Source: Ardenticatenales bacterium (GTDB lineage Bacteria; Chloroflexota; Anaerolineae; Epilineales; Epilineaceae). From it: DNA of 64,000 nucleotides. The notes under the pieces are model-generated. The model worked only from the letters and a program-made list of their open reading frames with translations, was not told the DNA's origin and ran no database searches. The stretch covers positions 76,587-140,586 of the forward strand of contig JADYYS010000039.1 in the NCBI GenBank assembly GCA_020853525.1, in the 5' to 3' direction. Position numbers and translations under genes: made by a program. Of this stretch, positions 15,566 to 41,995 are shown piece after piece; the stretch's first letter is position 1; each line of letters starts with the position of its first letter.

Positions 15566-16819
15566 ATGTCCCGACAACCACGCAACGCGCTTGTCGCCAT
15601 GACCGCCGTGGTCCTCGCGACGACGCAGATCGTCACTTCCGCCGGCACCGCCGCCTCCCCCGGCCCGATCGACTACATCCCCGCCGATCTCACGGACTAC
15701 GCTCCCGTCGGCGTGCCGGACTTCTCGGCCTGTCGACCGGAGTGGAGCCGCCCCGCCGCCGAGGCGAACGGGCCCGGACAGTGGACGTTCAGCGCGCCCG
15801 TCGCCCTGGCCGACGCCCTGTGGTGGCTGGACTCGCGCGCCGAGCCGCAGCCCGCCGCGCCTCCCTTCGTACGGGACGGCCACGGCCTCGTCACGGCCTA
15901 CCCCGCCTTCGGGCCGCCCCGCGACGACCACGACACGGCGAACCTCGGGCCGCTCATCGACGACCTCGCCGGCCGGGTCAACACCGACAACCGCGGCGCG
16001 CCCGGCAACGTGCGCGGGACGCGATGGGAGGACTTCGTCGACGGTGTGGAGTCGTACGTGGCGACGCGGCGGCTCAAGCCCGGTTACGCCGTCGCCACGA
16101 CGCTGCGACCGACCGGGCTGTGGCTGCGCGCGCAGGCCGACCGGTCCGCCGGCGTCGTCGTGCTGATCGGCGTCTGGGAGCAGGCGGGCGAGGGGTGGCG
16201 CCGGATCGGCGGGCACTACGCCGCGCTGGCCGGGACGGACGCCGCCGGCGAGGTCGTCGCGCTCGCCGACCCGGTGTACGATCAGGCGGTCCGGCCCGAC
16301 AACGGCGGTCGGTTCGTCCCGACCGACGGTGCCGCGCACTCCTGCCGCAACGCGCCGCGCGCCCACGACGACGCCGGCGCCGTCAGCCACGACCGCTACG
16401 ACCTCTTCCCTCCTTCCGGCATGCCGGACGCCGCGTGGGCGCTGGCCGGCTATTTCCGCCCGGAGACGTTCGGCGAGGGCGCCGCGTTCGCCGGCCAGAA
16501 CCCGGCCGACCACCTGGCCGACGCCAGCGGCACGTGGCAGCGCGGCACCCTCATCGCCGTGCTGGACGCCGCCCTCGCGCTCCAGCCCCGCGGCGGCGGA
16601 TCGTCCGTCCCGACGGCGACGCCACCCGCCGCGACGGCCCCACCGACGCCGACGACGGCGCAGAGCGCCGAGCCGACGGATGCGCCGACCGCCCCACCGA
16701 CGCCGACGACCGGCGCGAGCCCGACCCGCGCGCGCCCGACGCCGGCGCCGATCGGGGGCCGGATCCAATTCGATCGCCTCTGGCTGCCGGCGCTGCGCAA
16801 CCAGAGTCGCAGGCGATAG
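15566..16819 (+). CDS. secreted hypothetical protein, possible papain-fold/C39-like peptidase domain, Pro/Thr-rich linker and C-terminal RLWLPALRN tag
   Basis: Frame of ORF 15461..16819. The ATG at 15566 follows GGAG and starts the signal peptide MSRQPRNALVAMTAVVLATTQIVTSAGTAAS. A candidate Cys (DFSACRPEW) and a GGHYAALAG motif suggest a C39-like fold, but this is a weak guess. The C-terminus reads PTPTTAQSAEPTDAPTAPPTPTT...GGRIQFDRLWLPALRNQSRRR. Confidence 0.55.
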   Translation: MSRQPRNALVAMTAVVLATTQIVTSAGTAASPGPIDYIPADLTDYAPVGVPDFSACRPEWSRPAAEANGPGQWTFSAPVALADALWWLDSRAEPQPAAPPFVRDGHGLVTAYPAFGPPRDDHDTANLGPLIDDLAGRVNTDNRGAPGNVRGTRWEDFVDGVESYVATRRLKPGYAVATTLRPTGLWLRAQADRSAGVVVLIGVWEQAGEGWRRIGGHYAALAGTDAAGEVVALADPVYDQAVRPDNGGRFVPTDGAAHSCRNAPRAHDDAGAVSHDRYDLFPPSGMPDAAWALAGYFRPETFGEGAAFAGQNPADHLADASGTWQRGTLIAVLDAALALQPRGGGSSVPTATPPAATAPPTPTTAQSAEPTDAPTAPPTPTTGASPTRARPTPAPIGGRIQFDRLWLPALRNQSRRR

Positions 16820-16823
16820 ACCG

Positions 16824-16860
16824 GCGAGCGGCGAGTGCGGCGAGTGCGGCGAGTGCGGCG
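16824..16860. repeat. 9-nt tandem repeat (GCGAGTGCG) x3 plus degenerate flanks, immediately after stop of the 15566 gene
   Basis: Read directly from the sequence. Confidence 0.7.
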
Positions 16861-16921
16861 CGATCGACGTGCGCGGCGACCTTAACGAAGGCCTCGCCTG
16901 CCGGATGCTATACTCGCGGCC

Positions 16922-18349
16922 ATGACTGACCTGCTCGCGCAAGCCGTGAATGCGGTGCTCGCCGTCGGCGTTCTGGCGATGACACCCACCCCGCCGCCCG
17001 CGGCCATCCCCGATCCGTCCGTCGTGATCGTCGCGAACGACGGCACGTTCTCGTTCGCCGAGCGCATCGCGTTTCGGCTCGAGGTCCGGTCCGACGCGCC
17101 CGTACAGGACGTCGTCCTGCGCTTCACGATCGGGGACGGCGAGGTGATCAACCGCCGCGTCCCGGCGTTCGAGCCCGGAACGCGCGTCGTGGCGCGGCAC
17201 GAGGAGCCGTCGCCGCGCGGGGCGATCCCGCCGACGAGCGAGATCCGGTGGTGGTGGGACATCGCCGTGGCGGATGGCGGGCGCATCCAAACGGAGCGAC
17301 GCACGCTGCGCTACCTCGATCAACGCTACGCCTGGACCAGCCGCGACGTTGCCGATGTGCGGCTGTGGTCCTACAGCCTCGACGACAAGGACGCCGAGGC
17401 GCTGGCCGCGTCGGCGGTCGCCTCTCTCCGGACGATCCGCGAGCGCGTCGGTCTCGCCGTCGAGCAGCCGGTGCATGTCGTCGCCTACGCCTCGCAGGCC
17501 GATCTGCGACCGTCCCTCCTCGGCCGCGGCGACGTGTACGAGGCCCGCCTGGCGACGCTGGGTGCGCGCGTCGCCGACGACGTCGTGGTCCTCGACGCCG
17601 GCAGCCGCAGCGTGGCGCTCGAGACCGTTCTGCGCCACGAGCTGTCGCACGTCGCCGTCCACCTCCGGATGGACGAGCCCTGGATCGACGTCCCGTCCTG
17701 GCTCGACGAAGGGCTGGCGATGTACCTCGAGGGCGGCTTCGGCACGCTCGAGCGCCGCGCCCTCGACCGCGCGATCCGCGACGACGCGTTGATGAGCCTG
17801 CGCTCGATGACGAGCTTTCCCGGCGATGCCGACCAGGTGACGCTGGCCTACGCGCAGAGCCGCGACGTGATCGCCTACCTGGTGGACACGCACGGCCGCG
17901 CCCAGCTGACCGCGCTGTTCGACACGTTGGCGCCGGGCGACCGGACGATCGACGAGGCGCTGACACAGGTGTACGGCTTCGACCAGCTCGGGCTCTATCA
18001 GGCCTACCGGCAGGAACGCGGACTCTCCCCCGCCGCAACGCCCCCGCCCGACGCCGTGCCGCCCGGCCTCGCCCAGCCCGCGCGCATCCGCCCAGGCCCT
18101 CCATCCGACGACGAACCGACGGTTGCCGCACTTCAACTTCAGCGCACCGGGCGCTGGTGGTGGTTCGTCCTGCCGGCCGCCGCGGCGCTCGTCGCGCTCG
18201 TCGGCCTGGCGCTGGTCGTCGTCCGGCCGCGCCGCCGCCCTGCAGCGATGCGCACGCCGCCGACAGAAGATCCGGGGGCGGCCGAACGATCGCCCACCAC
18301 GCTGCCGCAATCCGAAGATCCGGCATCGATTGAGAGGCCAACCGAATGA
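16922..18349 (+). CDS. membrane-anchored zinc metallopeptidase, peptidase MA-like (HEXXH...E)
   Basis: ORF 16922..18349. HELSH plus a downstream WLDEGLAMYLE third ligand match the Peptidase_MA_2-like pattern. A C-terminal TM helix (WWWFVLPAAAALVALVGLALVVV) and charged tail follow. Confidence 0.6.
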   Translation: MTDLLAQAVNAVLAVGVLAMTPTPPPAAIPDPSVVIVANDGTFSFAERIAFRLEVRSDAPVQDVVLRFTIGDGEVINRRVPAFEPGTRVVARHEEPSPRGAIPPTSEIRWWWDIAVADGGRIQTERRTLRYLDQRYAWTSRDVADVRLWSYSLDDKDAEALAASAVASLRTIRERVGLAVEQPVHVVAYASQADLRPSLLGRGDVYEARLATLGARVADDVVVLDAGSRSVALETVLRHELSHVAVHLRMDEPWIDVPSWLDEGLAMYLEGGFGTLERRALDRAIRDDALMSLRSMTSFPGDADQVTLAYAQSRDVIAYLVDTHGRAQLTALFDTLAPGDRTIDEALTQVYGFDQLGLYQAYRQERGLSPAATPPPDAVPPGLAQPARIRPGPPSDDEPTVAALQLQRTGRWWWFVLPAAAALVALVGLALVVVRPRRRPAAMRTPPTEDPGAAERSPTTLPQSEDPASIERPTE

Positions 18350-19539
18350 CTCCACACGCACCGCTCGGCGCACGGGCGATCGATCGACACCGCATCGGCG
18401 GCCGCCAGTTCGTCGTCGTCGCCGTCGCCGCCGCCGTGGCGTTGGCCGGTTCGAACGCGGCAGCGGCCGCCGGCGGCACGACCCGACTGCCGGTGATCGA
18501 CCGGCCGGCCGTCGAGACGCTGCCCCAGCCGTCCGCCGCCGACCTGCCATCCTCGGCGCATGCGACGAACGCCTTCGCCCTGCCGTACGGGACGACGATG
18601 CTCGACGCGTTCGAGGGCGCTCTCTGGCCCGATCCGACCCGCTGGCTGTACGACACCGACCTCAACCGACCGGGCACCGGGACGCGCTGGTCGCCGTCCA
18701 CTTGCCAGGCAAAGGGCGGGTCGCGGGGTCTGCGAGCCAACGGCGCAACGCCGGTCGGGCCGCCGACATGCGCCGCGCCGTACGAAGGCAGCTTCACCGC
18801 CTCGACCGTCCTTGCCCTCGACCTCTCCAACATGGCCGATGCGGCGTCGGCCGAGCTGGCGTTCGACCTCTGGATGGACGCCGAGCCGAACGAAGGCCTG
18901 ATCGTGGCCTACCTCAGGCCGGAGGCGCCGGAGGGCTACTATGTCCGCCATATCCTGTACTCCGGTACCGGCCGCGTCCGGCGCTGGATCGAGGGCGGCG
19001 TCCGCCTCGATCTGGCCAACGCCCGCGACGTGTACGACGGCGCGTGGCGCGGTGACCTGCGCGGCAAGCAGGTCCTGATCGAGTTCGTCTTCCTCAGCGC
19101 CGACGGCAGCGCGGACGCGCAGGGCGCTTATCTGGACAACGTCGTCGTCCGCGCCGTGCCGCCCGCCGGCCCGACGCCGCCGCCCGGCGCGGTCGAGCGC
19201 ACGACCGCATGCACGGGCGTCCGGGACTGCGGGAGCGTCGGCGTGTTCGCCTATGTCGATGTGGGCTGCGACCGGCGCTTCCGCCGCGGCACGGACGTCC
19301 CGCTGGCGATGCAGCCGCGCGTCGACGTCACGGCTGGTGCGGACGTGCTCGGCGCGCGGCTCGGCAAGAGCGGACGGCTGACCTTTCAGTACCCGCTCGG
19401 CCGCGCCGCCACGTTCGGCCTGTCCGTTCCCGACGGCTACGCGCTGTGCCCGGACAGTCCGAATCCGATCGACGTGCCCGCCTCCGCCTTCAACCGGTTC
19501 CGGCGCACCAGCGTGGAGTTCCGCCTCCAGCGCCCGTGA
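18346..19539 (+). CDS. secreted hypothetical protein with MAM/CBM4_9-like jelly-roll domain (paralog family)
   Basis: ORF 18346..19539. Its start overlaps the upstream stop as ATGA. A signal peptide is present. The domain AFEGALWPDPTRW...GAYLDNVVVRAV is paralogous to domains in the genes at 22487 and 24766. Confidence 0.5.
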   Translation: MTPHAPLGARAIDRHRIGGRQFVVVAVAAAVALAGSNAAAAAGGTTRLPVIDRPAVETLPQPSAADLPSSAHATNAFALPYGTTMLDAFEGALWPDPTRWLYDTDLNRPGTGTRWSPSTCQAKGGSRGLRANGATPVGPPTCAAPYEGSFTASTVLALDLSNMADAASAELAFDLWMDAEPNEGLIVAYLRPEAPEGYYVRHILYSGTGRVRRWIEGGVRLDLANARDVYDGAWRGDLRGKQVLIEFVFLSADGSADAQGAYLDNVVVRAVPPAGPTPPPGAVERTTACTGVRDCGSVGVFAYVDVGCDRRFRRGTDVPLAMQPRVDVTAGADVLGARLGKSGRLTFQYPLGRAATFGLSVPDGYALCPDSPNPIDVPASAFNRFRRTSVEFRLQRP

Positions 19540-19548
19540 CGCGGCGGG

Positions 19549-20589
19549 TCACGACGATCGCTCGACATCTCCCGACAGCATCCGCACGTAGCTGTCGTGC
19601 CGCCGCGCGCTGATCCCGCCGCCGCCGACGGCCGCCCGAACGGCGCAGCCGGGCTCGTGGACGTGGCTGCAGTTCTGGAAGCGGCACTGGTTGAGGTAGG
19701 GACGGAACTCGACGAAGCCCCACTGCAGCTCGGCGCCGTCCATCTCCCACAACGCGAGCTCGCGCAAGCCGGGCGTGTCGGCCACCCGCCCGCCGCCCGT
19801 CAGCGGGTGGAGCTCGCCGACGCGCGTCGTGTGCCGCCCCTTGTGGTGCGTCGTGCTGACCTCCCCGACGCCGAGGGCAAGACCGGGCTCGATCGCGTTC
19901 AACAGGCTTGACTTGCCGACCCCGCTCGGCCCGACGACGGCGCTGACGCGCCCATGCAGCGCCTCTTTCACCGCCGCAAGGCCCGCCTCCGTCCGCACGG
20001 AAACGGGGAGGATCCGGTAGCCGATCCGCTCGTACTCCGCCAGGTCGGCGGCCACCGCCTTTTGGATGCCGAGGTCCACCTTCGTGATGACGATCACGCA
20101 GTCCAGCTCGTCGATCTCGGCCAACGCGAGGAAGCGGTCGATCAGGCGCGGGTTCGGGTCGGGACGCTGACAGCTGAACGTGATCAGCAACAGGTCGATG
20201 TTCGCGATGACGACGTCCTTCGACCAGATACCCTTCGGCCCCGGCGCCCGGCGCACCAAGCTGCTCGTCCGCTCGAGTCGCTCGATGATGACGGCATCAT
20301 AGCCACCCCCGCCCGACGGCGCCGCGGTCCGCTGCACCTTCACGCGGTCGCCAAGTGCGATCAGCCCCTCCCGATCACGATCCCGCTTCAGCCGGCCGCG
20401 CAGCGTGGCCGTCAGGATCACGCCCCCCGTCTCGACGGCATAGAACCCGCTCTGCGTCCGGACGACCCAGCCCTCGAGTACGGCATTCGGGTCATGCGGC
20501 ACAACAGCGTCGTGCGCCACCGCCGCGTCTTGGGAAGCCTCCCGGCCGCCGCCGGCCTCGCCGACGGGCGACTCCCCATCGTGCCGCAC
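19549..20589 (-). CDS. rsgA: ribosome small-subunit biogenesis GTPase RsgA (YjeQ)
   Basis: C-terminal 346 aa of ORF 19549..21948 show the OB fold, a circularly permuted GTPase (VGPSGVGKSSLLNAI, DTPG) and a C-terminal zinc motif (CRFQNCSHVHEPGC). The GTG at 20589 is preceded by GGAGAG. The 450-aa Arg-rich N-terminal extension is rejected. Confidence 0.85.
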   Translation of the reverse strand: MRHDGESPVGEAGGGREASQDAAVAHDAVVPHDPNAVLEGWVVRTQSGFYAVETGGVILTATLRGRLKRDRDREGLIALGDRVKVQRTAAPSGGGGYDAVIIERLERTSSLVRRAPGPKGIWSKDVVIANIDLLLITFSCQRPDPNPRLIDRFLALAEIDELDCVIVITKVDLGIQKAVAADLAEYERIGYRILPVSVRTEAGLAAVKEALHGRVSAVVGPSGVGKSSLLNAIEPGLALGVGEVSTTHHKGRHTTRVGELHPLTGGGRVADTPGLRELALWEMDGAELQWGFVEFRPYLNQCRFQNCSHVHEPGCAVRAAVGGGGISARRHDSYVRMLSGDVERSS

Positions 20590-20630
20590 CCTGTTCTCTC
20601 CGCCCGCCGCAGGCGTGGCAGTGGCCGCGG

Positions 20631-22415
20631 TCAAGCGTTCAACCTCACGGCCACACGCCGTGCGTCCCGGAGGATGGAGGCAGCCAGCCCTGCCGCTGCG
20701 AGCGCCAGCAGCGCCCACCACAGGGTGCGCGGGTCGGCGGGTGGGCCGCTGTCGACGCGGAAGTGGTCGAGGGCGATCTCGCCGCCCGCCGCGCCGGCCG
20801 TCAGCCGCAGCGTGTGCGCACCGCCGTCGAGGCCCTCCACGAGCGTCACGTCGGCCCAGGCCGCCTCGGCGCCGCCGAGCGGGCGCGGCGACTGCGCCTG
20901 GCCGTCGAGCTCGATGGCCAGCGTGCCGGCCTGCCGGCCGGTGGCCAGCCGGGCAACGACCTGGCGTCCGCGGAACGAGAAGACCAGATCGTCGCGGTCG
21001 GCGGCGGCCTGCGCGGCGGTGGACCCGGCCGACTGGGCAATGCCGTCGTCGCCGTCCGCCGAAGCGCCGTGCGCCACGAGCACCTGGCCGTCGGAAGCAC
21101 CCTCGCGCGGCAGCCAGCGCCAGGGGCCGCCCGGGGTCACGCGCACCGGCGCGCTGCGCTCCTGCCAGAAGCCGGGGCCGGCAACGGTCGTCCCGCTTGC
21201 GGCGTCGCGCACGGCGTCGAACAGGCGCGTCGGCGTGAAGTCGGGCATGACGGCGGCGAACCAGTAGTCCGCCCGGTCGGGCGTGATGCCGCCCCACTGC
21301 CGAAAGTACCACAGCCCGAAGACGCCGGCCCACGGCCACTCGGCCTGGGCAAGGCGGACGCCCTCGACGGTCCACTCGGCCTGCGACACGGCCGGCACGT
21401 GGCCCCAGATGTTGTCCTCCAAGCCGACCGGCGCAGCGTTCCAGCCGTACTCCGAGAGCCAGATCGGCGTCCCGTCGTCGCCCGCCTCGCGCATGATCCC
21501 CCGCTGCAGTTCGATTCGCCGGAAGTTCAGGCGGTCCGGCGCCGGCGGGTCGTTCGGCGGCCGGTCCATCCCGAAAGCATTGGCCGCCAGGATGTCGAAG
21601 TGCTCGGCGCCGCCGGCGGCATACATCCCGCGCAAGTAGTCGAGATCGTTCAGATTGTCGCCGTCGGCCAGCGACTCGGTGTTGATCGCCAGCGGTGCGG
21701 CGATGATCACCGCTGCGGGGTCCGCCGCCCGCGCGGCGGCGGCGGCGGCGGCCAGCAGCGCCACGTAGTCCGCCGGGTCGACCGGCCGGTAGCCCCACTC
21801 GCTGGCCAGGTTCGGCTCGTTCCAGATCTGGTAGAACCGGACCCGCCCCTTGAAGTGCGCTGCCGCTTCGCCCACGAAGCGGGCGAACTCCGCCGGGTCG
21901 GCCGGGACGTTGTTCGCGCCCGGGCCGTGGTCGTCGCGCGCCGCCCAAGCGGGCGTCCAGTCGATCCGCCAGATGACCTCGATCCCGCTCGCGTCACAGA
22001 TGTCGACGATCCGATCGTACTTGGCCCAGTCGATTCGCCCCCGTTCGCGCTCGACGTCGGCCCACGGCAGGTGCTGCTTGGCCCAGCGGATCCCGGCGTC
22101 GGCGGCCAGCGCAACGGTCTGTTCCGCCTTCCACACCTCGACCTCCCGCTCGAGGAAGACGTTGGCGCCCCACGGGTGCACGTCGGTGAACGGGATCGTC
22201 GCCAGGCGATGGGCGGCCGCACCGGCCAACCCGGCGCCGGACGGCGGGCGGAGCGCGAGCCACAGGGCCGCGCCGGCGACACCGAGCAGCGCCAAGGCGG
22301 ACAGCCGCAATCGACGCAGAAGCGGTGGTGGGATCACGCGTCGCGCGCGGGCGTGGCGATCACCGCCGGGCGAACGGCGGGCAGGCCGCGCGGTGGGGCG
22401 CAGGTCGGGGCGCAC
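20631..22415 (-). CDS. membrane-anchored glycoside hydrolase, GH5-like (cellulase-family TIM barrel)
   Basis: ORF 20631..22415. An N-terminal TM is followed by a catalytic-type motif RVRFYQIWNEPN (NEP acid/base) and then a C-terminal TM. The exact start is uncertain. Confidence 0.55.
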   Translation of the reverse strand: MRPDLRPTARPARRSPGGDRHARARRVIPPPLLRRLRLSALALLGVAGAALWLALRPPSGAGLAGAAAHRLATIPFTDVHPWGANVFLEREVEVWKAEQTVALAADAGIRWAKQHLPWADVERERGRIDWAKYDRIVDICDASGIEVIWRIDWTPAWAARDDHGPGANNVPADPAEFARFVGEAAAHFKGRVRFYQIWNEPNLASEWGYRPVDPADYVALLAAAAAAARAADPAAVIIAAPLAINTESLADGDNLNDLDYLRGMYAAGGAEHFDILAANAFGMDRPPNDPPAPDRLNFRRIELQRGIMREAGDDGTPIWLSEYGWNAAPVGLEDNIWGHVPAVSQAEWTVEGVRLAQAEWPWAGVFGLWYFRQWGGITPDRADYWFAAVMPDFTPTRLFDAVRDAASGTTVAGPGFWQERSAPVRVTPGGPWRWLPREGASDGQVLVAHGASADGDDGIAQSAGSTAAQAAADRDDLVFSFRGRQVVARLATGRQAGTLAIELDGQAQSPRPLGGAEAAWADVTLVEGLDGGAHTLRLTAGAAGGEIALDHFRVDSGPPADPRTLWWALLALAAAGLAASILRDARRVAVRLNA

Positions 22416-22486
22416 AGCGGTGCGCCCCGACCCGGTTTCCGAACGGATGCGCCGTCATTTGCCCGGGCGCACGGGCCGCCGGGCGG

Positions 22487-24646
22487 TCAACGTCCTGCCG
22501 TTGTGCCGCGGTTCTCGACGATGCCGAACGCTTCGATCCCGCGGAAGGACGGGCCGGTGCGCCGCACGTCGTCCGCCCCGAACGGCCGGGCATTGCGGAG
22601 CGCAGCGGCGAGATGGGCGGCCGACATCCGGGCCGGCGTCCAGCGCACGTCCTGGCGCACGACCTCGCCGGTCGTGCGGCAGTACTCGACCGCGACATTG
22701 TCGAGGCCGAACGCCATCGGGTTGGACCCGTTCGTCGTCGCGCCGAAGAAGATCTGCGCCGAGTTGAACCCATCGCGCTTGGCCCACAGATCCTTGAGGT
22801 CGACCGAGAGCGGCACCCACTGGCCAAGCGGCAGCAGCTGGCCGCCGACGGGCGAGTCCTCGCTCAACCACTGTGCCGCCTGATCCGTGGGCGCGTCGCC
22901 GACGACGCCGAGGAAGAACTTGTCGGCGTTGTCGCCGTTGCCCCGCGTCTCGTTGCCGAGCATGCCGAGCGCCAGCTTGATCTGAACGGACGCGATGTCC
23001 TCGAGCGGCAGCGTCTCGATCTTGCCGGAGTTCACCAAGATGTCCTCGGCGTTGTCGTAACCACCCAGGTCGATCGCGAAGCGGCTCTGGAACCCCGGCG
23101 TGCGGAGCAGCTCATGGCCGTTGAGAGCGCGGCCCGACCAGCCTTCGCCCCCGAGTTCGAAATCGCCGTTGACGACCGGATTCTGGCAATTGGCAGGCAG
23201 CGTCGGCACGGCGCTCGGCGTCGGCCCGGGACCGCTGTTGCCCGTCACCTCGGCCACCTCGTCCGCCCACGCCACCGCCTCGCCCCGCAGGAACACGGCC
23301 ACCCTGAAGCGCCCGGGTTCGAGCGCCGACCCGTCGGCCGCATTCACGCATTCGGACAGGAAGCCTGAGGCGGCCGTGGTCTTCGTCGTCGGGTTGAGGC
23401 GCTCGTTGCCGTCCGGCAGGATGATCTTCTGCCACCTGCCCGCCACGTCCTCGTACCACTGCACGGACATCAGGGTGTCGACGGGCAACCCGGTCCAACG
23501 CTGGGCCGAACACAGCTGAAAGATGCGGCCGAAACGCGTGCCCTGGCCGACGAGCGTGCCGTCGTTCAGGACGTTCGTCCCGAATCCCACCACCACGCCG
23601 CCGGGCAATGCCGTCGGTTGGGACGGTGCCATGATGTCCTTGTCGACGTTGTTCACGGCGATCGGGAGGTACGCGCGCGACGAACCGTCCGGCGTCGCGG
23701 GCGGCGGTGTGGCCTCCGACGCCGGCGTCTCGCCCGGCGCCGGCGTTTCGCGCAGCCGCGTGGCCGAAGGCGTCACACCCGGCTCGAGCGTGGCGGTCGG
23801 CACGGAGGAAGAGAGTCCCTCGATCGTCACGTTGTCGATCAGCGAGCCGGTGTGCGTGCCCGTCGGGGTTGCGTCCTCCACGCGGAAGTAGATCCGCGCC
23901 GCCGGCAGGCCGGCGGCAAACGGGAACTTGAGCGGATCCTGCAGCGAGAGCCAGCGCTTGCGGAGATCCGTGCCGTCCCCCGACCGGTAGTTCAAGGAAT
24001 AGCACCGCAACTCCGTCGGCACCGCGGTGCTGGCACAGACCCTGAACGACAGGACGACCTCGTTCGTGCCGTTGGGCAGGAAGCCGACCGGGCCATCGAG
24101 GTAGAGCAGCAGGTTCACCTGCACGCCGCCGTCGAAGTCCGTCGCGTCGAACGGCCCGTAGACGAGATCGGTGGCCACCGGCTGATCGTAGTTCGAGCCC
24201 GGCGACAGGCTGGCGCCAAGCCGGCCGCCGCCGATCGACCACGGCGCTTTCAGCCCGCCCCCCGGCCGCCCCGGTGCGGGCGCGGCGAGGAGCACGTCCT
24301 GGTTGCCCCAGGTGTAGTTCTCTTGCTGACCTTGCGCCACCCGCAAGTCGTAGGTCGTCCAACCCTCGGGCGGGAAGTCGCCTTCGAAGTCCTCTTCCAC
24401 CACGGGCACGGTGCCCTGTTGGAGGGACTGCGGCCGCACGGCAAGGGGTCGATGATCGACCGACCGGCCGCCGCCGTCCTCGATTGACACGAGCCCCACC
24501 GAAGCCTCTTCGACGATCATTGCCGCGGCCGGTGCCGCCGTGAACACGTCCGACCGATCGGCACGCGCCGCCGGCGCGCCCCCTTGCAGCGCCCACATCC
24601 CCGCGACGACCGCACCGAGCACCGCCGCTCCCTCGCGCATCCTCAT
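22487..24646 (-). CDS. large secreted protein with two jelly-roll (MAM/CBM4_9-like) domains
   Basis: C-terminal 719 aa of ORF 22487..26014. The ATG at 24646 is preceded by GGGGAGGAG and starts the signal peptide MRMREGAAVLGAVVAGMWALQGGAPAARA. Domains are EEDFEGDFPPEGW...GSLIDNVTIEGL and NGDFELGGEGW...GLDNVAVEYC, separated by a Pro/Thr linker. Confidence 0.6.
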   Translation of the reverse strand: MRMREGAAVLGAVVAGMWALQGGAPAARADRSDVFTAAPAAAMIVEEASVGLVSIEDGGGRSVDHRPLAVRPQSLQQGTVPVVEEDFEGDFPPEGWTTYDLRVAQGQQENYTWGNQDVLLAAPAPGRPGGGLKAPWSIGGGRLGASLSPGSNYDQPVATDLVYGPFDATDFDGGVQVNLLLYLDGPVGFLPNGTNEVVLSFRVCASTAVPTELRCYSLNYRSGDGTDLRKRWLSLQDPLKFPFAAGLPAARIYFRVEDATPTGTHTGSLIDNVTIEGLSSSVPTATLEPGVTPSATRLRETPAPGETPASEATPPPATPDGSSRAYLPIAVNNVDKDIMAPSQPTALPGGVVVGFGTNVLNDGTLVGQGTRFGRIFQLCSAQRWTGLPVDTLMSVQWYEDVAGRWQKIILPDGNERLNPTTKTTAASGFLSECVNAADGSALEPGRFRVAVFLRGEAVAWADEVAEVTGNSGPGPTPSAVPTLPANCQNPVVNGDFELGGEGWSGRALNGHELLRTPGFQSRFAIDLGGYDNAEDILVNSGKIETLPLEDIASVQIKLALGMLGNETRGNGDNADKFFLGVVGDAPTDQAAQWLSEDSPVGGQLLPLGQWVPLSVDLKDLWAKRDGFNSAQIFFGATTNGSNPMAFGLDNVAVEYCRTTGEVVRQDVRWTPARMSAAHLAAALRNARPFGADDVRRTGPSFRGIEAFGIVENRGTTAGR

Positions 24647-24765
24647 GACAAGTCTCCTCCCCATCATCCGCGCAAGGCGGCCATGACCAGCGGGCGACAG
24701 TCTAGCACACGCCCTTCGGGCGGCGCCAGCGCTCTGTCGCGGCAGCGAGAAAGCCGAACCGAATC

Positions 24766-25956
24766 TCAGGGGGAGCGGCGCAGGAACCCGTATGGCAGGT
24801 AGATCCGGTGTTCCGGCGTGACGAGAACCGTAGGCGTTGCCGTCGATGTCGTCGGCGTCGCCGTGGTCGGACCGACCGTCGATGTCGGTTCCAACGTTGC
24901 CGTCGGCGCGTCCGTGACGGTGCCGACGACGGTCGGCGGCGGCGGGAGCACGAACGTCCCGGTAGCCGTCGCCGTGGCGGTGGCCGTCCGGCGGTCGGGC
25001 GTGGCCACGGACGTCGGCGGCGTGCTGGGCGGCGAGCCCGTCCGGGTGGGCGTCGCGGTCGGCGGCGCGACGGTGCCGGTCGGGGTGCGCGTCACGGTCG
25101 GCGTGCCGGAAGGCGCTCCGGTCGGTGAACCCGTCGGGCCGGCGGTGGCGGTGGCGGCCGTCGGCATGGGTGTGCCGGTGCGCGTGGCGCTCGGCGACGG
25201 CAACGCCGTGTGGGTTGCGCTGACGGTGGGCGTGGGCGTGGCGGTCGGCGCGGCGGTTGTGGCCGCGCCGGTCGTGGTGGGCGGCGGCGCATCCGACAGG
25301 CCGTGGATGACGACGCGGTCGACGAACGCACCCTGGTGCGGCGTCTCGAAATCGCGGTCGCGGAAGCGGAAGACGACGAACGCCTCCTCTTGCCCGCCGA
25401 CGAGTGGGAACTGGAGCTTCGGCTCGAAGTAGTTCCAGTCGATCTGCAGCACGCCGACTGAGAAGCAATCGATACCGCCGGGTGAGCCGGGGTTGGTGAC
25501 GCAGACCTGGAAGTCCGTCTCGCGGTGCAGGTCGAGCTTGAAGTACGTCGCCACCTGCAGCCCGTCCTCGAACGGTCGGGTGTCGATCGGCCCGAACATC
25601 AGGTCGCTCTCCGACGGGCCGGCGTACGTGCCGCCGCACGCCAGGCCGCCGCCCGCGGTGCCGCCGCCGACCGACCAGACGCTGGCGCTGCCGCCGCCGG
25701 AGGGCGCCGTGCACGTCGTCCGTGCCCATACGTACTGTCCGGGCGGCGTCATGTTGTCCTGGACATACCAGTCCGGCGGCGGGAACGCGCCCTCGAAGCC
25801 TTGGTCCTCGATCAGCGTGGCGATCGTGACGTTGCCGGCGACGTTGCCGCCGGCGCCGTACGCCGCACCGCACGCCAGCACGAGCGCCGCCAGGCCGGCC
25901 AGTGCGGAAGGACGGATGGTGATGGTTGGCCGGAGCGAACCGGATTCGCGCGACAT
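24766..25956 (-). CDS. secreted protein with MAM/CBM4_9-like jelly-roll domain, long Thr/Pro/Ala linker and C-terminal RIYLPYGFLRR tag
   Basis: Frame of ORF 24766..26091. The ATG at 25956 follows GGAGG and starts the signal peptide MSRESGSLRPTITIRPSALAGLAALVLACGAAYGA. The domain EDQGFEGAFPPPDW...GAFVDRVVIHGL is paralogous to those in the 22487 and 18346 genes. Confidence 0.6.
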   Translation of the reverse strand: MSRESGSLRPTITIRPSALAGLAALVLACGAAYGAGGNVAGNVTIATLIEDQGFEGAFPPPDWYVQDNMTPPGQYVWARTTCTAPSGGGSASVWSVGGGTAGGGLACGGTYAGPSESDLMFGPIDTRPFEDGLQVATYFKLDLHRETDFQVCVTNPGSPGGIDCFSVGVLQIDWNYFEPKLQFPLVGGQEEAFVVFRFRDRDFETPHQGAFVDRVVIHGLSDAPPPTTTGAATTAAPTATPTPTVSATHTALPSPSATRTGTPMPTAATATAGPTGSPTGAPSGTPTVTRTPTGTVAPPTATPTRTGSPPSTPPTSVATPDRRTATATATATGTFVLPPPPTVVGTVTDAPTATLEPTSTVGPTTATPTTSTATPTVLVTPEHRIYLPYGFLRRSP

Positions 25957-26056
25957 CGAAGCCTCCAATCGTTCGGTTAACATTCGCCACGGCCCGAGCC
26001 GTGCGACGTGGCACGGTTCGGGTGGCACGGTTCGGGCGGCACTGCGGTCCGGCGCG

Positions 26057-27481: not shown

Positions 27482-27488
27482 CCGGCGA

Positions 27489-31089: not shown

Positions 31090-31105
31090 GACGTCTCGGC
31101 CTCCG

Positions 31106-32692
31106 TCACCCCGCCGACGCCGTCAGATCCGGCGGCGCGGAGGGCGGCCGCACCGTCGGCCGTGTCGGCGCCGCGTTGCGGGCGACCGCGGCCTCGGCGG
31201 CGAGAACGTCCCACGCGGCCATCGCCGCGTCCAGCTCGGCGTGCGCGACGGCACGGGCGGACGGCGCGGCCGCATCGCCGGCCGCGTCGGCGCGGGCGAC
31301 GGAGTGGCGCGCGTCGAGTTCGCGGTGCAGCTGGGCGTGCAGTGTGCGATAGAACCGGGTCGTGAACGTGCCTTGGAAGAGCATCGCCAGGTCCATGCTG
31401 TCCTGCCAGTGGCCATCGCCGGCCAGCTCGTCCGCCACGCGGTGGTGGAAGGGCGTGCCGGGCAGCGGGTAGCTGACCGAGACGCCGATCGCGTCGGGCA
31501 CGACGGCGCGCACGAGGGCGGCGGTGGCCTCGACGTCGGCCCACTCCTCGCCGGGATAGCCGAGCTGAAGGAAGAAGGCGACGCGGATGCCGCGGGCGCG
31601 CAGGCGCGCGGCGGCGGCCGGAACGTCGGCGGCGCGGATGCCCTTGTCCATCGCGTCCAGCACGGGCTGGGAGCCGCTTTCGACGCCGAGCCAGACCTCG
31701 ACGCAGCCGGCGCGCGCCAGGCCGTCGGCGGCGGCATCGCTGATCAGGTCGACGCGGCTTTGGATCGTGAACGGCAGGTCGGCGCCGCGCGCGGCGACGG
31801 CCTCGCCGAAGGCCGCCGTCCATTCGGGGCGCAGGCCGAAGATGTCGTCGGCGAACCAGACGTGGTCCGGCGCGTGCTCGCGCTTGAGCGCCGCCAGCTC
31901 GTCGGCGACGGCGTCCGGCGTGCGCATCGCGTAGCGCTGGCCCCAGATCGGTTTGGCGCACCAGTTGCAGTGGAACGGGCAGCCGCGCGTGCTGGCGGCG
32001 TTGAGAGACCAGTGGCCGTGCGCCGCTCGCCAGACGGCGCGGTAGGCGTCGAGGTCGACGAGATCGCGGGCCGGCGGCGGAAAGCGGTCGGGGATGCGTT
32101 CCGTCGGGCGGGGCGGGGTGCGGGCGATGCCGCCGCCGACGCCGGCGAGCACGAGGCCGGGCACGGCGGACAGGTCCGGGCGAACGGCGTCGTGCCGCGT
32201 GGACCGGCGATCGACTTCGGGCGCCGTCGGATCGGTGTGGCCGAGGAGCACGCGCACCGCTTCGACGATCGTCCAGTCGGCCTCACCGTAGGCCACCGCC
32301 GCCGCGCCGGCGTCGAGAAAGCGCTGCGGTGCGTCGCTGGCGTCGGAGCCGGCGACGAGCGTCGGCAGGCCGCGGTCCGCCGCCAGGGCGACCATCCGGA
32401 GCGCGGCATCGCGCATGACGGCCAGGCACATCTTGGAATAGAAGTTGAAGCTGTCCTCGAACAGGACGACGAGCCGCGGGCGATGGGCGTCCAGCGCGTC
32501 CTCGAACACTTCCGGGCCCGGGGCGATCATCGCATCGAACAGCGCGACGCTCCACCCCGCGTCCCGGACGGCTGCCGCGGCGTACAGCGTGCCGAGGGGC
32601 GGGTACGGACGCCGGAGCGCGGCCTGCTTGGGGTCGAGCGCCATGAACAGCGCGTGCCCGAACAGGACATCGACGCCGCCGGCGGTGTTCAT
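31106..32692 (-). CDS. B12-binding domain-containing radical SAM protein (paralog)
   Basis: ORF 31106..32692. Contains CPFHCNWC and VWLGVESGSQPVLDAM. It is the same architecture as the adjacent gene, with a 16-nt gap between them. Confidence 0.8.
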   Translation of the reverse strand: MNTAGGVDVLFGHALFMALDPKQAALRRPYPPLGTLYAAAAVRDAGWSVALFDAMIAPGPEVFEDALDAHRPRLVVLFEDSFNFYSKMCLAVMRDAALRMVALAADRGLPTLVAGSDASDAPQRFLDAGAAAVAYGEADWTIVEAVRVLLGHTDPTAPEVDRRSTRHDAVRPDLSAVPGLVLAGVGGGIARTPPRPTERIPDRFPPPARDLVDLDAYRAVWRAAHGHWSLNAASTRGCPFHCNWCAKPIWGQRYAMRTPDAVADELAALKREHAPDHVWFADDIFGLRPEWTAAFGEAVAARGADLPFTIQSRVDLISDAAADGLARAGCVEVWLGVESGSQPVLDAMDKGIRAADVPAAAARLRARGIRVAFFLQLGYPGEEWADVEATAALVRAVVPDAIGVSVSYPLPGTPFHHRVADELAGDGHWQDSMDLAMLFQGTFTTRFYRTLHAQLHRELDARHSVARADAAGDAAAPSARAVAHAELDAAMAAWDVLAAEAAVARNAAPTRPTVRPPSAPPDLTASAG

Positions 32693-32716
32693 CGCGTCGG
32701 CCGGCGCCCCGCGGGC

Positions 32717-34045
32717 CTACGGTGCGGCACGGACATCGGCATTGCGAAGCGAGACGGGCAGGAAGACCCGCCCGCCCTCGGTGGACGGCGTCGTCGGCGA
32801 CGGGACGGGGGTGGCGGAGGACGGCGTCGGCACGGCGGTCGTGGCCGTCGGGCCGGGCGGGGTGACGGTCGGCGCCGTGTCGGGCGAGAGGTCGACCGCG
32901 AAGCCGTCGGACAGGTACCGCACGCCGTTGCCCTCGAGGCGCAGGCCGCCGTACACGAGGACGCGATCGCCCGCCGCATCCCACACCGCGCTCTGACCGC
33001 TGCGCGCGCTCGGCGCCGTGCCGGCCGGCGTGATCGCCCGCCAGCGCGGGGCGGTCGGGTCGCGATAGTCGAGCGCCCAGACGTCGGACATCTCGCCGAG
33101 GACGGGCGAGTAGCCGCCGTACAGGATCGCCCAGCCGGTGGATCCGGCGAACGTCAGCGTTGCGCCGCTCCGGGCGCTCGGGCCGGCGCCGGCCTGCGCC
33201 GCGATGTCCGACCACGCACCGGGCGCATCGATCGCCGCGAGGTCGGCGCGCCAGAGATGGGTGGTGGGCGTGGCGTCCGGCCCCTGTCCGCCGAACGCGA
33301 CGAGGTGGCCGGAGCGGGGGTCGCGGTCGGCGGCCTGGAAGAGGAGCTGGAACGGCACGGCCGGCACGGACCGCCACTGGGCCGCGTTCAGGTCGTTCAC
33401 GTCCAGCGCCCACGTCGCGGTCATGATATCGCCCGAGCCGCTGAACTCGCCGCCGGCGGCGATGACGCGCCGGCGCGGCGCGTCGAAGGCCAGGAGCCCG
33501 TTCGCCAGCGGGAGGGACTGCACGTCGGCGATGCGCCGCCACGTGACCGCACCGCCGGTCGCCGGCCAAACGGCGCCGTACGTGGTGGCGCCCGTGCAGT
33601 GGCAGATCAGCAGCGCCGACGTCTCCGCGGCCCCGTCATCGGAGATGCGCACGGCGCGCGCGCCGACGAGACCCCGGCCGGACAGTCCGGACACGGGCCG
33701 GTCGCCGCTCTCGGCCAACGTCGTCCAGGCCTGCGCCGGCGCGAGCGCAAGCGACCGCAGCGCGTCCGGCGGCTGGAAATCGCCCTGCTCGCCGCCGATG
33801 AGCGTCATCGAACGGCCGTCGATCACCGCGCCGTGGCCGCCGAGGGCGCGATCGCCCGGGAGCGCCTGCCATGACACGCCGGCGAGGTCGTCGGTCTGCG
33901 CCTGAGCCGTGCCGACCGGGCGAGCGGCTACGAGGGCGACGATGACGGCGACGGCCAGCGCGAGCGCCTTGGCGAGGGGCGCGGCCGTCGAACGGGACGG
34001 GCGGCGGACGCGGGGCGACTGCGCAATGGGATGCGGATCGATCAC
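32717..34045 (-). CDS. secreted Kelch-repeat beta-propeller protein with Pro/Thr linker and C-terminal RVFLPVSLRN tag
   Basis: C-terminal 442 aa of ORF 32717..34801. The GTG at 34045 is preceded by GGAGG with a 6-nt spacer and starts the signal peptide ...LAKALALAVAVIVALVAARPVGTAQAQT. Repeated propeller blades are present (…LIGGE…, …IAAGGE…, …VAFGGQ…, …ILYGGY…, …LVYGGL…). The stop lies 25 nt before the start of the downstream rSAM gene. Confidence 0.55.
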   Translation of the reverse strand: MIDPHPIAQSPRVRRPSRSTAAPLAKALALAVAVIVALVAARPVGTAQAQTDDLAGVSWQALPGDRALGGHGAVIDGRSMTLIGGEQGDFQPPDALRSLALAPAQAWTTLAESGDRPVSGLSGRGLVGARAVRISDDGAAETSALLICHCTGATTYGAVWPATGGAVTWRRIADVQSLPLANGLLAFDAPRRRVIAAGGEFSGSGDIMTATWALDVNDLNAAQWRSVPAVPFQLLFQAADRDPRSGHLVAFGGQGPDATPTTHLWRADLAAIDAPGAWSDIAAQAGAGPSARSGATLTFAGSTGWAILYGGYSPVLGEMSDVWALDYRDPTAPRWRAITPAGTAPSARSGQSAVWDAAGDRVLVYGGLRLEGNGVRYLSDGFAVDLSPDTAPTVTPPGPTATTAVPTPSSATPVPSPTTPSTEGGRVFLPVSLRNADVRAAP

Positions 34046-34294
34046 GAACGGCCTCCGGACATCGTGGCGCGGCGGGTGTGCCGGGCGCGGCGCATCCGGG
34101 CTGTCCCGGGCGCGGCGGTGGGGTTGCGGGGAGCCGCCACGCACCCGCAGGCGCATGTCGGGCCGGGGGCGGCGGGCGCGTCGATTGTAGGCGACGGGCC
34201 AGCCGGGTCGCAAGGGCGAACGCGGGCGGGAGGTGCGGCGGACCGCGCGGCGCGACATGGCGCTCGGGTGGGTCGGCGATGCGGGCGACCCATT

Positions 34295-34321
34295 GACGCC
34301 CGGCCCCAACGCCATACAATG
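34295..34321 (+). promoter_or_regulatory. candidate sigma70-type promoter (TTGACG-N15-TACAAT) upstream of CAP-domain gene
   Basis: Seen in the 445-nt divergent intergenic region. The hexamers are near-consensus. Confidence 0.45.
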
Positions 34322-34490
34322 GGCCGCGTTGTCGCCCCGGAAACGCGGCGGCCGGCCGCTCGGTAGGCAATCGGCGGTCGGCCAGACGGCTCCGCGATGG
34401 AGTTCGTCGGGAACGGGTGCGCGGTCCGCTTGGACGCGCCGCACCCTGGCCGCGTGGATGGGCAGCGATGCTTGCAGAGGAGCTGTGTTC

Positions 34491-35306: not shown

Positions 35307-35311
35307 GGGCA

Positions 35312-36763: not shown

Positions 36764-36773
36764 GGTCGGCGGT

Positions 36774-38003: not shown

Positions 38004-38029
38004 GCGAAGGAGTGTAGCGTGACTGCGTG

Positions 38030-38084
38030 CGGTGGAGCGGCGTTCGTGCGGCGTTGGAGCGGCGTTGGGGCGGCGTTGGAGCGG
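38030..38084. repeat. 11-nt tandem repeat array, about 5 copies (CGTTGGAGCGG and variants), in ACAD / cytochrome c divergent region
   Basis: Read directly from the sequence. The periodicity is one helical turn. Confidence 0.75.
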
Positions 38085-38288
38085 CCGGCGGCGGCGCGGT
38101 CGGGTTCGCGTCGCCGGCACGACCGCATCGCCAGCCTTGATCGACCCTCGTCCGCCGGATAAAGTGTGTTCGCCGCACATGGCATGCAATCGTATGCACC
38201 GGGATCGCCTCGCCCGACGCCGCTGCGTGCAGCCGGACGTGACCTCGCGTCGCCGGACATCCGATCACCCCCTTCCCCGGGAGCCCGC

Positions 38289-38975: not shown

Positions 38976-38979
38976 CGTG

Positions 38980-40002: not shown

Positions 40003-40006
40003 GGCG

Positions 40007-41995
40007 ATGGCAGAGCGGCGAAACGGGACGATCGGACGATGGTCCGCGCAGCGGTCCGCGCGGGTGGCGACCGTCGCGTTGGCGATCGGGCTCGTCGGCC
40101 TCGGCGCCGCGCGTGCTGCCGCCGAGGCCGGTACGGGTGCCGATGCCGATGCCGTCGGTGTTGCCCATGCCGAACCGATTGCCGATTCGGCCGCCGATTC
40201 CGACGCGGCGGCGGTGTGGGCCGTCGTGGACACCGTTCGCCCGGGCTTCCTGCCGCCGCCCGGCGGTGTCGTTCGTCCGGTCGATTTGGCGGTGCTGCCC
40301 GACGGCGGCTTCCTGGTCGTGGACGATACGCTACAGCGTGCCGAACGGTTCGACGCTGCCGGCGGCGTGGTGGTCGGCTACGGCGGCGTGCCGGGCGACG
40401 GGGCGTTCATCGAGGCGCCGATCGGGGTGGCGGTGGATCCGGCGCGGTCGCGGGCGTACATCTCGGACGCCGTCGGGCGCAAGGTACTGGCGTTCGATCT
40501 CGGCGGTGGGCTGCAGGCCGCGTGGGCCGGGTTCGCCCAGCCCGAGGCGGCGACGGTCGGGCAGGACGGGCGGTTGTATGTCTACGATCGGCCGAAGGCG
40601 GCGCTGGCCGTCCGTCGCCCGGACGGGACGGCCGAAGCGGAGATCACGGTCCAGCGGGCGCTCTCGTTCTCCTCCGAGCTGCCGAGCGGCCTGGCGACGA
40701 GCGGGCGCGGGACGCTGTTCTTCGCGGCCGAGAACCCGGTGGCGAATGCCGCCAACGTGCTCTACGAGTTCTCTGCCGACGGCGCGGTCATCCCGCCGCG
40801 AACGCAGCTCCGGTGGCGGATGCGGGACATCAGCTTCGACGCGGCCGGCGAGATGTTCGTCCTGGACTGGACGAACCGCCGGATCGTCAGCCGCCTCGAT
40901 CGGCAGCGAGGCGAGATCGGCCGCGCCTGGCCCGTGGCCGGCTTCCCGGTGGCGATGGCCGCTCGCGCCGCCGACGAGGTCTTCCTCCTGTACGGCGCCT
41001 CGCCTGCCGCTCCGGCGGCCGTGGCCGTCGTCGAGGGCGGGCGTGAGGTGCGCCGGCTGCCGCTGCCCCGCCCGGCCGGCCGCTGGTTCGGCCCGCCGCT
41101 GCGCCTGCAGGTCGATGCGACCGGCCGCCTGTGGGTCGTCGACGAGCTCGAGCGCGCCGTGCGGCTGACGCCCGATGGCCGGGAGGGCGACACCCAGTTC
41201 ACGCTCCACGGCCTGCAGGAGATCGTGCCCCTCGGCGACGGATCGACGGCCGTCGTCATCCGCACGCGCAGCTCGTCGTCCAACGACGCCCCCGACGACC
41301 GCGACGCACCGCCGCCGGGCATCCGCCGGGTGAGCTTCGAGCGCTACAGCGTGCGACCGGGCGCCGACCCGGGCATCGACCTGACCACTGTCGTCACCCG
41401 CACGTTCGTCACGGACGTCACCGCGTCGGACACGATCGTCGCCGCCGCCAGCGCCCCCGACGCCGACGGCCGCGGTGCCTGGGTGCTCGACCGCGGCTCA
41501 TCCCGGCTGCACCACATCGTTCAAGGCATCTCGAACACGATCGACGTGGCGACGACGCCGTTGCCCGAGGCGAGCAGCGCACTGGAGTACCGCGACGTCG
41601 TGGCGCTCCAGGGCGGCCGGATCGGCGTGCTCCACGGCCCGACGAGACGATTGCTGGTCGTCCGTCCGGACGGGGGCGCGCCGGACGCCGTGGCGCTGGA
41701 CGTGGAGAGCGCCCTGCGCATCGCGGCGCTGCCGGACGGTCGGTTGGCCGTGCTCACGAGCGGCGACGACGTCGCGATCCTGGCCGCCGACGGCCGCCGC
41801 CAGGCCGTCGTGCCGCTGCCCCGCCCCGCGGGAGCGGGCAACGAGCCGGCCAGCGACATCGCCGCCGGGCCGGACGGGACGGTGTACGTGGCGGACCGGC
41901 TGGACCGGGCGGTGTACCTGTTGCGGGCGGGGACAGGGCAGCCGAGCCGGACGGGGGTGTACTTGCCGTGGGTGGGGAATGAGGCGGCGCGGTAG
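40007..41995 (+). CDS. secreted NHL-repeat-like beta-propeller protein with C-terminal GVYLPWVGN tag
   Basis: Frame of ORF 39896..41995. The ATG at 40007 starts the signal peptide MAERRNGTIGRWSAQRSARVATVALAIGLVGLGAARAAAEA. Repeated FxLDxxxRL / VYVADRLDRAV blades resemble NHL repeats. Confidence 0.5.
   Translation: MAERRNGTIGRWSAQRSARVATVALAIGLVGLGAARAAAEAGTGADADAVGVAHAEPIADSAADSDAAAVWAVVDTVRPGFLPPPGGVVRPVDLAVLPDGGFLVVDDTLQRAERFDAAGGVVVGYGGVPGDGAFIEAPIGVAVDPARSRAYISDAVGRKVLAFDLGGGLQAAWAGFAQPEAATVGQDGRLYVYDRPKAALAVRRPDGTAEAEITVQRALSFSSELPSGLATSGRGTLFFAAENPVANAANVLYEFSADGAVIPPRTQLRWRMRDISFDAAGEMFVLDWTNRRIVSRLDRQRGEIGRAWPVAGFPVAMAARAADEVFLLYGASPAAPAAVAVVEGGREVRRLPLPRPAGRWFGPPLRLQVDATGRLWVVDELERAVRLTPDGREGDTQFTLHGLQEIVPLGDGSTAVVIRTRSSSSNDAPDDRDAPPPGIRRVSFERYSVRPGADPGIDLTTVVTRTFVTDVTASDTIVAAASAPDADGRGAWVLDRGSSRLHHIVQGISNTIDVATTPLPEASSALEYRDVVALQGGRIGVLHGPTRRLLVVRPDGGAPDAVALDVESALRIAALPDGRLAVLTSGDDVAILAADGRRQAVVPLPRPAGAGNEPASDIAAGPDGTVYVADRLDRAVYLLRAGTGQPSRTGVYLPWVGNEAAR

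Follow-up and report, generated by a model that had tools for sequence, protein, structure and literature searches.

The YLP-box, a putative sorting motif, on unrelated exported proteins of a Chloroflexota genome

Within a 64,000-nucleotide stretch of an Ardenticatenales bacterium genome (Chloroflexota; assembly GCA_020853525.1, contig JADYYS010000039.1, positions 76,587 to 140,586), hereafter the window, four otherwise unrelated exported proteins, encoded by the genes designated A to D, carry the same short tag close to their C-termini, and a fifth exported protein, encoded by gene E, carries it internally. Judged by their sequences, the four tails and the internal copy of E are lineage-degenerate copies of the Chloroflexota YLP-box, a curated motif, and we use tag and YLP-box as synonyms throughout. 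The tag is real, recurrent, selected at the protein level, and strongly enriched near C-termini. The present analysis adds a quantified enrichment, conservation of the tag across orthologues, conserved internal copies, and high-GC variants that produced no match to the existing models as run.

The window has a GC content of 72% and harbors many spurious open reading frames (ORFs), so codon-position GC was used to judge coding, and 43 window proteins (17,635 aa) were curated by hand. The GC content at third codon positions (GC3) was 0.88-0.91 in A, B, C, and D, and GC1 exceeded GC2 over their domains, a pattern not exhibited by the overlapping alternative ORFs. All four proteins begin with basic-then-hydrophobic, signal-peptide-like N-termini. 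Gene A (15566-16819, + strand; GC3 0.91) encodes a 417 aa exported protein without a Pfam match, ending in a Pro/Thr-rich (PT) linker and the tag (...GGRIQFDRLWLPALRNQSRRR / ...DRLWLPALRNQSRRR), in which the core RLWLPALRN (16775-16801, +) has W for Y and a shortened hydrophobic run. The product of gene B (24766-25956, - strand; 396 aa, exported, no Pfam match) bears a very long PT linker followed by the tag (...EHRIYLPYGFLRRSP / ...HRIYLPYGFLRRSP; core RIYLPYGFL, 24781-24807, -). Gene C (32717-34009, - strand) encodes a 430 aa exported Kelch beta-propeller protein (PF24681, E 1.1e-19) with a PT linker and the tag (...GGRVFLPVSLRNADVRAAP / ...GRVFLPVSLRNADVRAAP), the core of which, RVFLPVSLR (32744-32770, -), is the nearest to the consensus in the window. 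Finally, gene D (40007-41995, + strand) encodes a 662 aa exported NHL-repeat protein (Pfam NHL), where the tag (...RTGVYLPWVGNEAAR / ...TGVYLPWVGNEAAR) follows the last repeat without a PT linker, and its core, GVYLPWVGN (41954-41980, +), is the weakest copy, devoid of K/R past the hydrophobic run. All four tails run to the stop codon, with the aromatic residue located 11-15 residues from it and 8-12 mostly polar or charged residues after the Pro, none of which comprises a transmembrane segment.

These tails agree with the initial annotation of this DNA, which had described one C-terminal tag, not followed by a transmembrane helix, on four unrelated exported proteins. The motif given there, R-[IV]-[YFW]-L-P, holds for B and C but not for A, which reads R-L-W-L-P, or D, which reads G-V-Y-L-P, and the core common to all four is a hydrophobic residue followed by [YFW]-L-P. 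Likewise, the Pro/Thr linker assigned to the tag is indeed long and Pro/Thr/Ala-rich in A, B, and C, but it is absent in D and is not a defining feature, given that only 13 of 73 tagged ORFs from related loci have a PT-rich stretch ahead of the tag. In the AlphaFold 2 (AF2) model of A (mean predicted local distance difference test score, pLDDT, of 77), the core comprising residues 35-345 is confident, and the linker and tail are disordered with pLDDT below 55; in this predicted structure, the box of A behaves as a tethered linear motif outside the fold.

The consensus derived from 81 aligned tails is R-[VLI]-[YFW]-L-P-[VIL]-[IVL]-[LVM]-[KR]-[NRS] followed by 0-6 further residues, a motif of about nine residues without a transmembrane helix, whose aromatic residue lies 7-16 residues from the C-terminus. 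The residues after the K/R of the consensus (0-9 residues) are variable and unconserved. Canonical tails on unrelated ORFs of the related loci include RVYLPLVLRGF, RVYLPIILKRYIP, KVFLPLILKNHS, LVYLPIVLRNRP, and KIYLPIILKNYG, all of them terminating at the stop codon. Within the window, C fits this consensus fully, A (RLWLPALR) and B (RIYLPYGFLRR) fit it with the hydrophobic run shortened or interrupted, and D lacks the flanking basic residues.

By scanning short tails against NCBIfam at a permissive threshold, we observed that the canonical tails KVFLPLILKNHS and RLYLPVIMKKHAI match both of its YLP-box models. The model NF050076.1 ('sort_motif_YLP'; 11 positions, cutoff 15 bits) scores the two tails at 15.9 and 15.6 bits, and NF053834.1 ('ultrashort_CTERM'; 10 positions, cutoff 10 bits) scores them at 13.8 and 14.6 bits. 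Both carry the description 'YLP-box putative sorting motif-containing protein'. The signal is thus not undescribed, as had been proposed, and the guess that it serves sorting is the one at which the NCBIfam curators had also arrived. As far as can be told, the tag exists only as a database model, without a published mechanism. The window tails were compared with NF050076 in a semi-quantitative chimera test, in which each was joined to one canonical tail and the product scored. Relative to a scrambled control (13.3 bits), B reached 19.5 bits (+6.2), C, D, and the internal copy of E each reached 15.8 bits (+2.5), and a second canonical tail reached 17.4 bits (+4.1), so that B, C, D, and E add about as much as a canonical copy. 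Membership of the window copies in the YLP-box family is consistent with their cores, with orthology, and with their position near the C-terminus without a transmembrane helix, the internal copy of E being the exception in position.

Next, we addressed how often such tails would arise by chance, using a position matrix and a hidden Markov model (HMM) built from 69 tails, all of which come from other genomes and none from the window. Among the 43 window proteins the matrix ranked C highest (18.0), followed by the internal site of E (15.3), B (13.8), A (13.1), an internal site in the protein encoded at 3483-5435 (12.5), and D (10.9). Four matches scoring at least as high as D occur at 11-15 residues from a stop, where 0.07 are expected (Poisson P ~1e-6). 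Under the nine-position HMM, the sites of A to D and E rank first to fifth among all six-frame ORFs of the window, with C on top and 2-4 bits each. The additional internal site, CLYLPMIPE at about residue 135 of 3483-5435 (- strand), is besides E the only interior match in the window to reach the score of the weakest tail; it lies in a protein without a signal-peptide-like N-terminus and looks like a chance match.

The same trend was observed on a broader scale. From species-representative genomes we collected the surroundings of gene A homologues, 80 loci (1.08 Mb) in total, and nearly all of these genomes are Chloroflexota metagenome-assembled genomes labelled as Anaerolineae, Ardenticatenales, Caldilineae, Chloroflexia, Thermoflexales, Ktedonobacterales, or Dehalococcoidia; these loci are denoted below by L numbers. 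Together with the window they contain 4,408 stop-to-stop ORFs of at least 100 aa, in which the interior rate of [YFW]LP is 3.3e-4 per position, corresponding to 1.46 expected occurrences per distance bin. The interval of 7-12 residues from the stop contained 69 occurrences, against 8.7 expected, an approximately eightfold enrichment; 46 of the 69 belong to the A family, which was used to fetch the loci, and 23 to unrelated ORFs. At matrix scores of at least 18 there were 59 terminal and seven interior matches, and about 90% of the strong copies are no farther than 20 residues from the stop. The possibility raised in the initial annotation that the four tails merely resemble each other by chance is not borne out by these frequencies. 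The codons vary between copies (CTG/CTC/TTG for Leu, CCG/CCA/CCC for Pro), which places the similarity at the protein level and not in a repeated DNA cassette; a DNA-level repeat supplying the 3' ends of genes is ruled out by these same differences.

The tag is also kept in the orthologues of all four families while the linker preceding it diverges. Nearly all of 44 homologues of A end in the tag, their PT linkers being unalignable, with tails such as RIWLPALRNLR, RLWLPLVRRGGRR, RLYLPLAVARW, and RLWLPVALKASR at the stop, and SVYLPFALVPRK... In the A1 alignment of 24 A-family sequences, the Pro of the tag is invariant and the Leu nearly invariant. The orthologues of B end in RIYLPYAVRRRQP (L002), FLYLPFGVVNRAR (L001), and SIYLPRLFND (L013). 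For C, a HMMER scan of 1.84 billion representatives was carried out, and among the best 150 matches all 12 full-length orthologues (37-66% identity) are tagged at the end (DVYLPLLLRDYDLP, FIFMPLVLRSHAIE, RIFLPNALKSADV...), while the remaining matches, about 138 generic multi-Kelch proteins, lack the tag, barring one chance-like match. The orthologues of D, down to 36% identity, carry RIYLPWAGAGARQGG, PLYLPVASNGP, and RLALPLLRR at the stop, as well as RIYLPWAGAG..., PLFLPWAGS..., SVYLPLGLNGG..., and GLWLPWLGGG... The product of gene A is 100% identical to the GenBank entry 'MAG: hypothetical protein IT332_08465 [Ardenticatenales bacterium]', and ten tagged homologues go by no recorded name other than 'hypothetical protein'.

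The A family itself comprises 254 relatives in species-representative genomes, almost all of them Chloroflexota, and none of the Pfam domains matches it. Its Cys, His, and Asp positions are invariant or near-invariant, and stop-to-stop ORFs as long as about 3,900 aa also contain the domain. A Foldseek search of the A model against the PDB returned weak matches to papain-fold peptidases (best E 4e-3, TM-score 0.25-0.5), and the weakly papain-like fold, with staphopain and phytochelatin synthase at E 4e-3 to 0.1, gives a hint as to the nature of A and is uninformative on the tag.

Gene E (22487-24667, - strand) harbors the internal copy. Its product is a 726 aa exported protein composed of a B-like N-terminal domain, a PT linker, the internal YLP-box, and about 390 aa of further domains; the box, RAYLPIAVN (23651-23677, -), lies within RAYLPIAVNNVDKD and is followed by a conserved VDKD. 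The position of the box is kept in all six orthologues, down to 27% identity (including those at L001 7281-9599; L002 16533-18638; L005 17982-20294; L011 18188-20683; L013 16804-19008), with the variants TAYLPMSV, VAYLPLSV, IAFLPVLL, IAFLPMLL, and RIFLPNVS. The claim that the tag is strictly C-terminal therefore does not hold. Mid-protein canonical boxes were also found in multidomain secreted proteins (L062 4298-6739, L064 4798-7974, L032 401-1780, L066 4356-7820), whose types are metallopeptidase-like (HEMFH, L062), papain-like (CGTCW, L064), and cupredoxin-like fused to tandem A domains; in L062 and L064 the box, KIYLPLI[LV]KNY, stands between PT linkers on both sides, with a further domain downstream. 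The E protein is possibly a precursor that undergoes cleavage at the box. Its AF2 model, with a mean pLDDT of 43, is uninformative on whether the box packs against the downstream domain. B and E share the N-terminal domain of about 200 aa, which has no Pfam match and bears the motifs FEG.FPP.GW and GGG..G, and they are adjacent paralogues in L001, L002, and L013. Altogether, five copies (A to E) on four unrelated domain families are found within 64 kb.

The cargo looks biased toward exported proteins. Among the Chloroflexota loci, 53 of 73 tagged ORFs have signal-peptide-like N-termini, in comparison with 205 of 1058 control ORFs. Of the other 20 tagged ORFs, several are truncated by the end of the locus. 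Many of the very large A-domain proteins end in ...GGSTYRPPAPPGRVYLPIILKSYGS at the stop codon. Untagged proteins of the A family end in dockerin-like repeats (L017 4962-12551, L055 1-3024, and L071 1087-5436, the latter two labelled Dehalococcoidia), which score 28.4, 20.9, and 14.9 bits, respectively, with Dockerin_1, so that only L017 passes its cutoff of 22.9. Since members without the box end in other modules such as dockerin, the arrangement of these sequences suggests that the C-terminal slot of the A family serves targeting or anchoring modules.

Taken together, we lean toward the YLP-box as a signal for retention or processing that acts after translocation, is read by a dedicated extracytoplasmic partner, and probably entails cleavage at the box or after it. 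Although the Chloroflexota count as monoderm, their envelopes can be multilayered, including a proteinaceous layer and an outer, sheath-like one (PMC13319060). Once fully translocated, a protein requires some means of being held there. Upon Sec export and removal of the signal peptide, the protein would lie unattached on the outer side of the membrane, the cell being considered monoderm, and would present the box on a flexible tether as a short hydrophobic, Pro-kinked strand with basic flanks. A dedicated component of the extracytoplasmic envelope would recognize the box and retain the protein at the wall, the proteinaceous layer, or the sheath. Recognition would probably be accompanied by cleavage in or just after the box, whereby the poorly conserved last residues would be discarded. 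Internal boxes such as that of E would be cut likewise, so that the two halves of the protein come apart. A processing signal is suggested by the unconserved distal residues, by the invariant L-P, and by the strong terminal bias, the residues after the K/R being as variable as in signals with a discarded distal part. Only tentatively do we extend this retention or processing reading to a novel, helix-independent Chloroflexota machinery, of which the box would be the substrate signal and which would carry out extracytoplasmic cutting or transfer, attachment to the wall or sheath, and splitting of precursors such as E at internal boxes flanked by PT stretches.

Several observations weigh against these interpretations, either as regards the identity of the window copies or as regards a processing partner. 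The full proteins and tails of A to D gave no direct match to NCBIfam, where the filters discard anything scoring under about 15 bits, and where the near-consensus RVYLPIILKRYIP was lost as well; tail A, at 12.8 bits, added no NF050076 score in the chimera test; and literature searches on the YLP-box and on Chloroflexota sorting signals found no publication on the motif. The conserved internal copies indicate that a C-terminal position is not required, and the lack of a transmembrane helix leaves no obvious means to hold the substrate at a membrane enzyme. None of the window ORFs contains a sortase TLxTC signature, and by clustering neighbor ORFs across the 80 loci, where antisense ORFs and one syntenic block dominated, no enzyme-like family was found to recur near tagged genes.

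The missing helix favors docking over cleavage, and as the main rival it is possible, if somewhat unlikely, that the box is a non-covalent docking ligand. It would then be a short linear motif, perhaps a beta-strand, bound uncleaved to an envelope receptor or layer, as a miniature functional analogue of dockerins or cell-wall-binding modules. The disordered tethers, the internal boxes flanked on both sides by PT linkers, and the dockerins found at the same position in some A-family paralogues are all consistent with such binding. Pure binding, however, would not need most strong copies to lie so close to the stop, the near-invariant L-P is more typical of recognition by peptidases or transpeptidases, and no receptor candidate was found. 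An interfacial membrane anchor, that is, a basic-hydrophobic(7)-basic peptide inserted in the outer leaflet of the cytoplasmic membrane without a partner protein, would account for the R/K, the seven hydrophobic residues including an aromatic one, and the K/R that follows, as well as for the exported cargo. Nevertheless, a stretch of seven residues with an invariant Pro at its center would anchor only weakly, simple hydrophobic anchoring does not call for a strict L-P, and GVYLPWVGN and RLWLPALRN are barely hydrophobic yet conserved, which renders this explanation improbable.

Still less credible is a degenerate sortase signal of a truncated LPXTG type, in which a housekeeping sortase would read the L-P. 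The invariance of the L-P, the presence of an LPSTG substrate in the window (13411-14268), and a TLITC ORF near a tagged A paralogue in L030 speak in its favor, but the box lacks T-G, has V/I/L at positions +3 to +5, and is followed by no transmembrane segment, while the 80 loci provide a single plausible sortase context in addition to the absence of TLxTC from the window. The L030 ORF (6309-7262), which constitutes that context, is sortase-like and lies about 2 kb upstream of the tagged paralogue (9341-11107). Finally, chance Pro/Leu-rich tails in a genome of such high GC, or a DNA repeat, would be in line with the low individual HMM scores of the window copies and with the missing direct NCBIfam matches. 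This explanation is practically negligible in view of the Poisson probability in the window, the enrichment across 1.1 Mb, the conservation of the tag in four families, and the differing codons.

As for genes in the vicinity, the two features that the initial annotation had pointed out are present as described. The protein encoded at 13411-14268 has an LPSTG motif, a hydrophobic stretch of about 16 residues, and RRWERRR, and is hence a normal tripartite sortase substrate, and a Peptidase_MA_2 membrane protein is encoded at 16922-18349 (E 1.3e-32). The suggestion that this peptidase processes the tag was based on its location between tagged genes, and only local synteny ties the two. The peptidase adjoins A only in about nine closely related syntenic loci, where the genes for the Era and RsgA-like GTPases are also in place, and it was not found in the other A-family loci; this pattern reflects preserved synteny and does not speak for processing, and the peptidase is rejected as the processing enzyme because nothing supports that role. 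The syntenic block (approximately 14303-28060) comprises Era, A, the MA peptidase, a hypothetical protein, an RsgA-like GTPase, a glycoside hydrolase (GH)-like protein, E, B, and a LuxR/Kelch protein, and is conserved in L001, L002, L003, L005, L011, L012, and L013, labelled Ardenticatenales, Caldilineae, and Anaerolineae.

The tagged genes do not form the coherent island that had been supposed, being interspersed with genes for the Era and RsgA-like GTPases, the GH-like protein, a LuxR-Kelch fusion, a methyltransferase, two B12-binding radical SAM enzymes, CAP and GSDH domain proteins, an acyl-CoA dehydrogenase, a cytochrome c, and DsbB. Between B and C, the region 26057-32692 (- strand) encodes the LuxR(GerE)-Kelch fusion followed by the S-adenosylmethionine (SAM) methyltransferase and the two B12-binding radical SAM enzymes, and may be a small modification cluster. 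We also observed a perfect tandem repeat of CTCGACCTCCT (x3, 15521-15553) just upstream of A, another of GCGGCGAGT (x3.7, 16828-16860) in the gap between A and the MA peptidase, and an 11-bp tandem repeat (x5.2) at 38029-38085.

Soils, sediments, hot springs, and wastewater sludge all harbor abundant Chloroflexota, and the envelopes of these bacteria are poorly understood. The YLP-box was found on 4 of the 43 curated window genes and in 73 copies across 1.1 Mb of loci, which were chosen for one often-tagged family, and it marks a sizeable part of the exported proteome. It provides a handle for defining the surface proteome from sequence, for searching the partner by phylogenetic profiling, and for designing surface-display tags. 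A lesson also emerges for annotation, as the degenerate boxes of high-GC Ardenticatenales gave no match to the current models as run and the proteins are deposited as 'hypothetical protein'.

Among known systems, the LPXTG signals of sortase substrates share with the YLP-box the invariant L-P, the Sec-exported cargo, an often Pro/Thr-rich linker that spans the wall, and one or more basic residues downstream. The YLP-box differs in lacking T-G and a membrane-spanning hydrophobic segment, with only 0-9 residues past the K/R; of the LPXTG pentapeptide (or LAXTG/NPQTN) it has only the L-P, and the hydrophobic segment and charged tail are absent as well. The PEP-CTERM/exosortase, PGF-CTERM/archaeosortase, GlyGly-CTERM/rhombosortase, and MYXO-CTERM/myxosortase systems likewise place one short signature near the C-terminus of many unrelated exported proteins. 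In such tripartite signals, a signature motif is followed first by a transmembrane helix and then by an Arg cluster, and the cut is made by intramembrane enzymes (10.1101/2023.06.07.544157); the sharing of one signature by many unrelated exported proteins in a genome is the logic by which they are discovered (10.1101/2023.06.07.544157). The tails of A to D have no transmembrane helix and no PEP, PGF, GlyGly, or Cys signature, and none of the NCBIfam CTERM models matched them, in agreement with the initial annotation, which had set the tag apart from sortase and exo/archaeosortase signals. Lacking the helix, the YLP-box is unlikely to be partnered by an intramembrane protease.

Dockerins, which bind cohesins, are also C-terminal modules of secreted enzymes that follow linkers, and they occupy the same position in box-free paralogues of the A family. 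Dockerins measure about 60 residues and fold into a Ca-binding domain, whereas the YLP-box has about nine and is disordered in the one confident model, that of A. The C-terminal domain (CTD) of Type IX secretion likewise lacks a transmembrane helix and serves as a C-terminal signal; its removal takes place beyond the cytoplasmic membrane, and the cargo is attached to the surface. This CTD is a beta-sandwich of 70-100 residues that operates with the PorU/PorV machinery in diderm Bacteroidota. The tag shares the core of the NCBIfam YLP-box, composed of Y-L-P, three hydrophobic residues, and K/R, and the name 'ultrashort_CTERM' suits a helix-free motif. Tails both of homologues and of neighboring genes in the related Chloroflexota loci exceed the cutoffs of the two models. 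The copies in the window depart from the NCBIfam YLP-box by degeneracy, with W/F for Y, G/S/A within the hydrophobic run, and N in place of K/R, and one conserved copy is internal.

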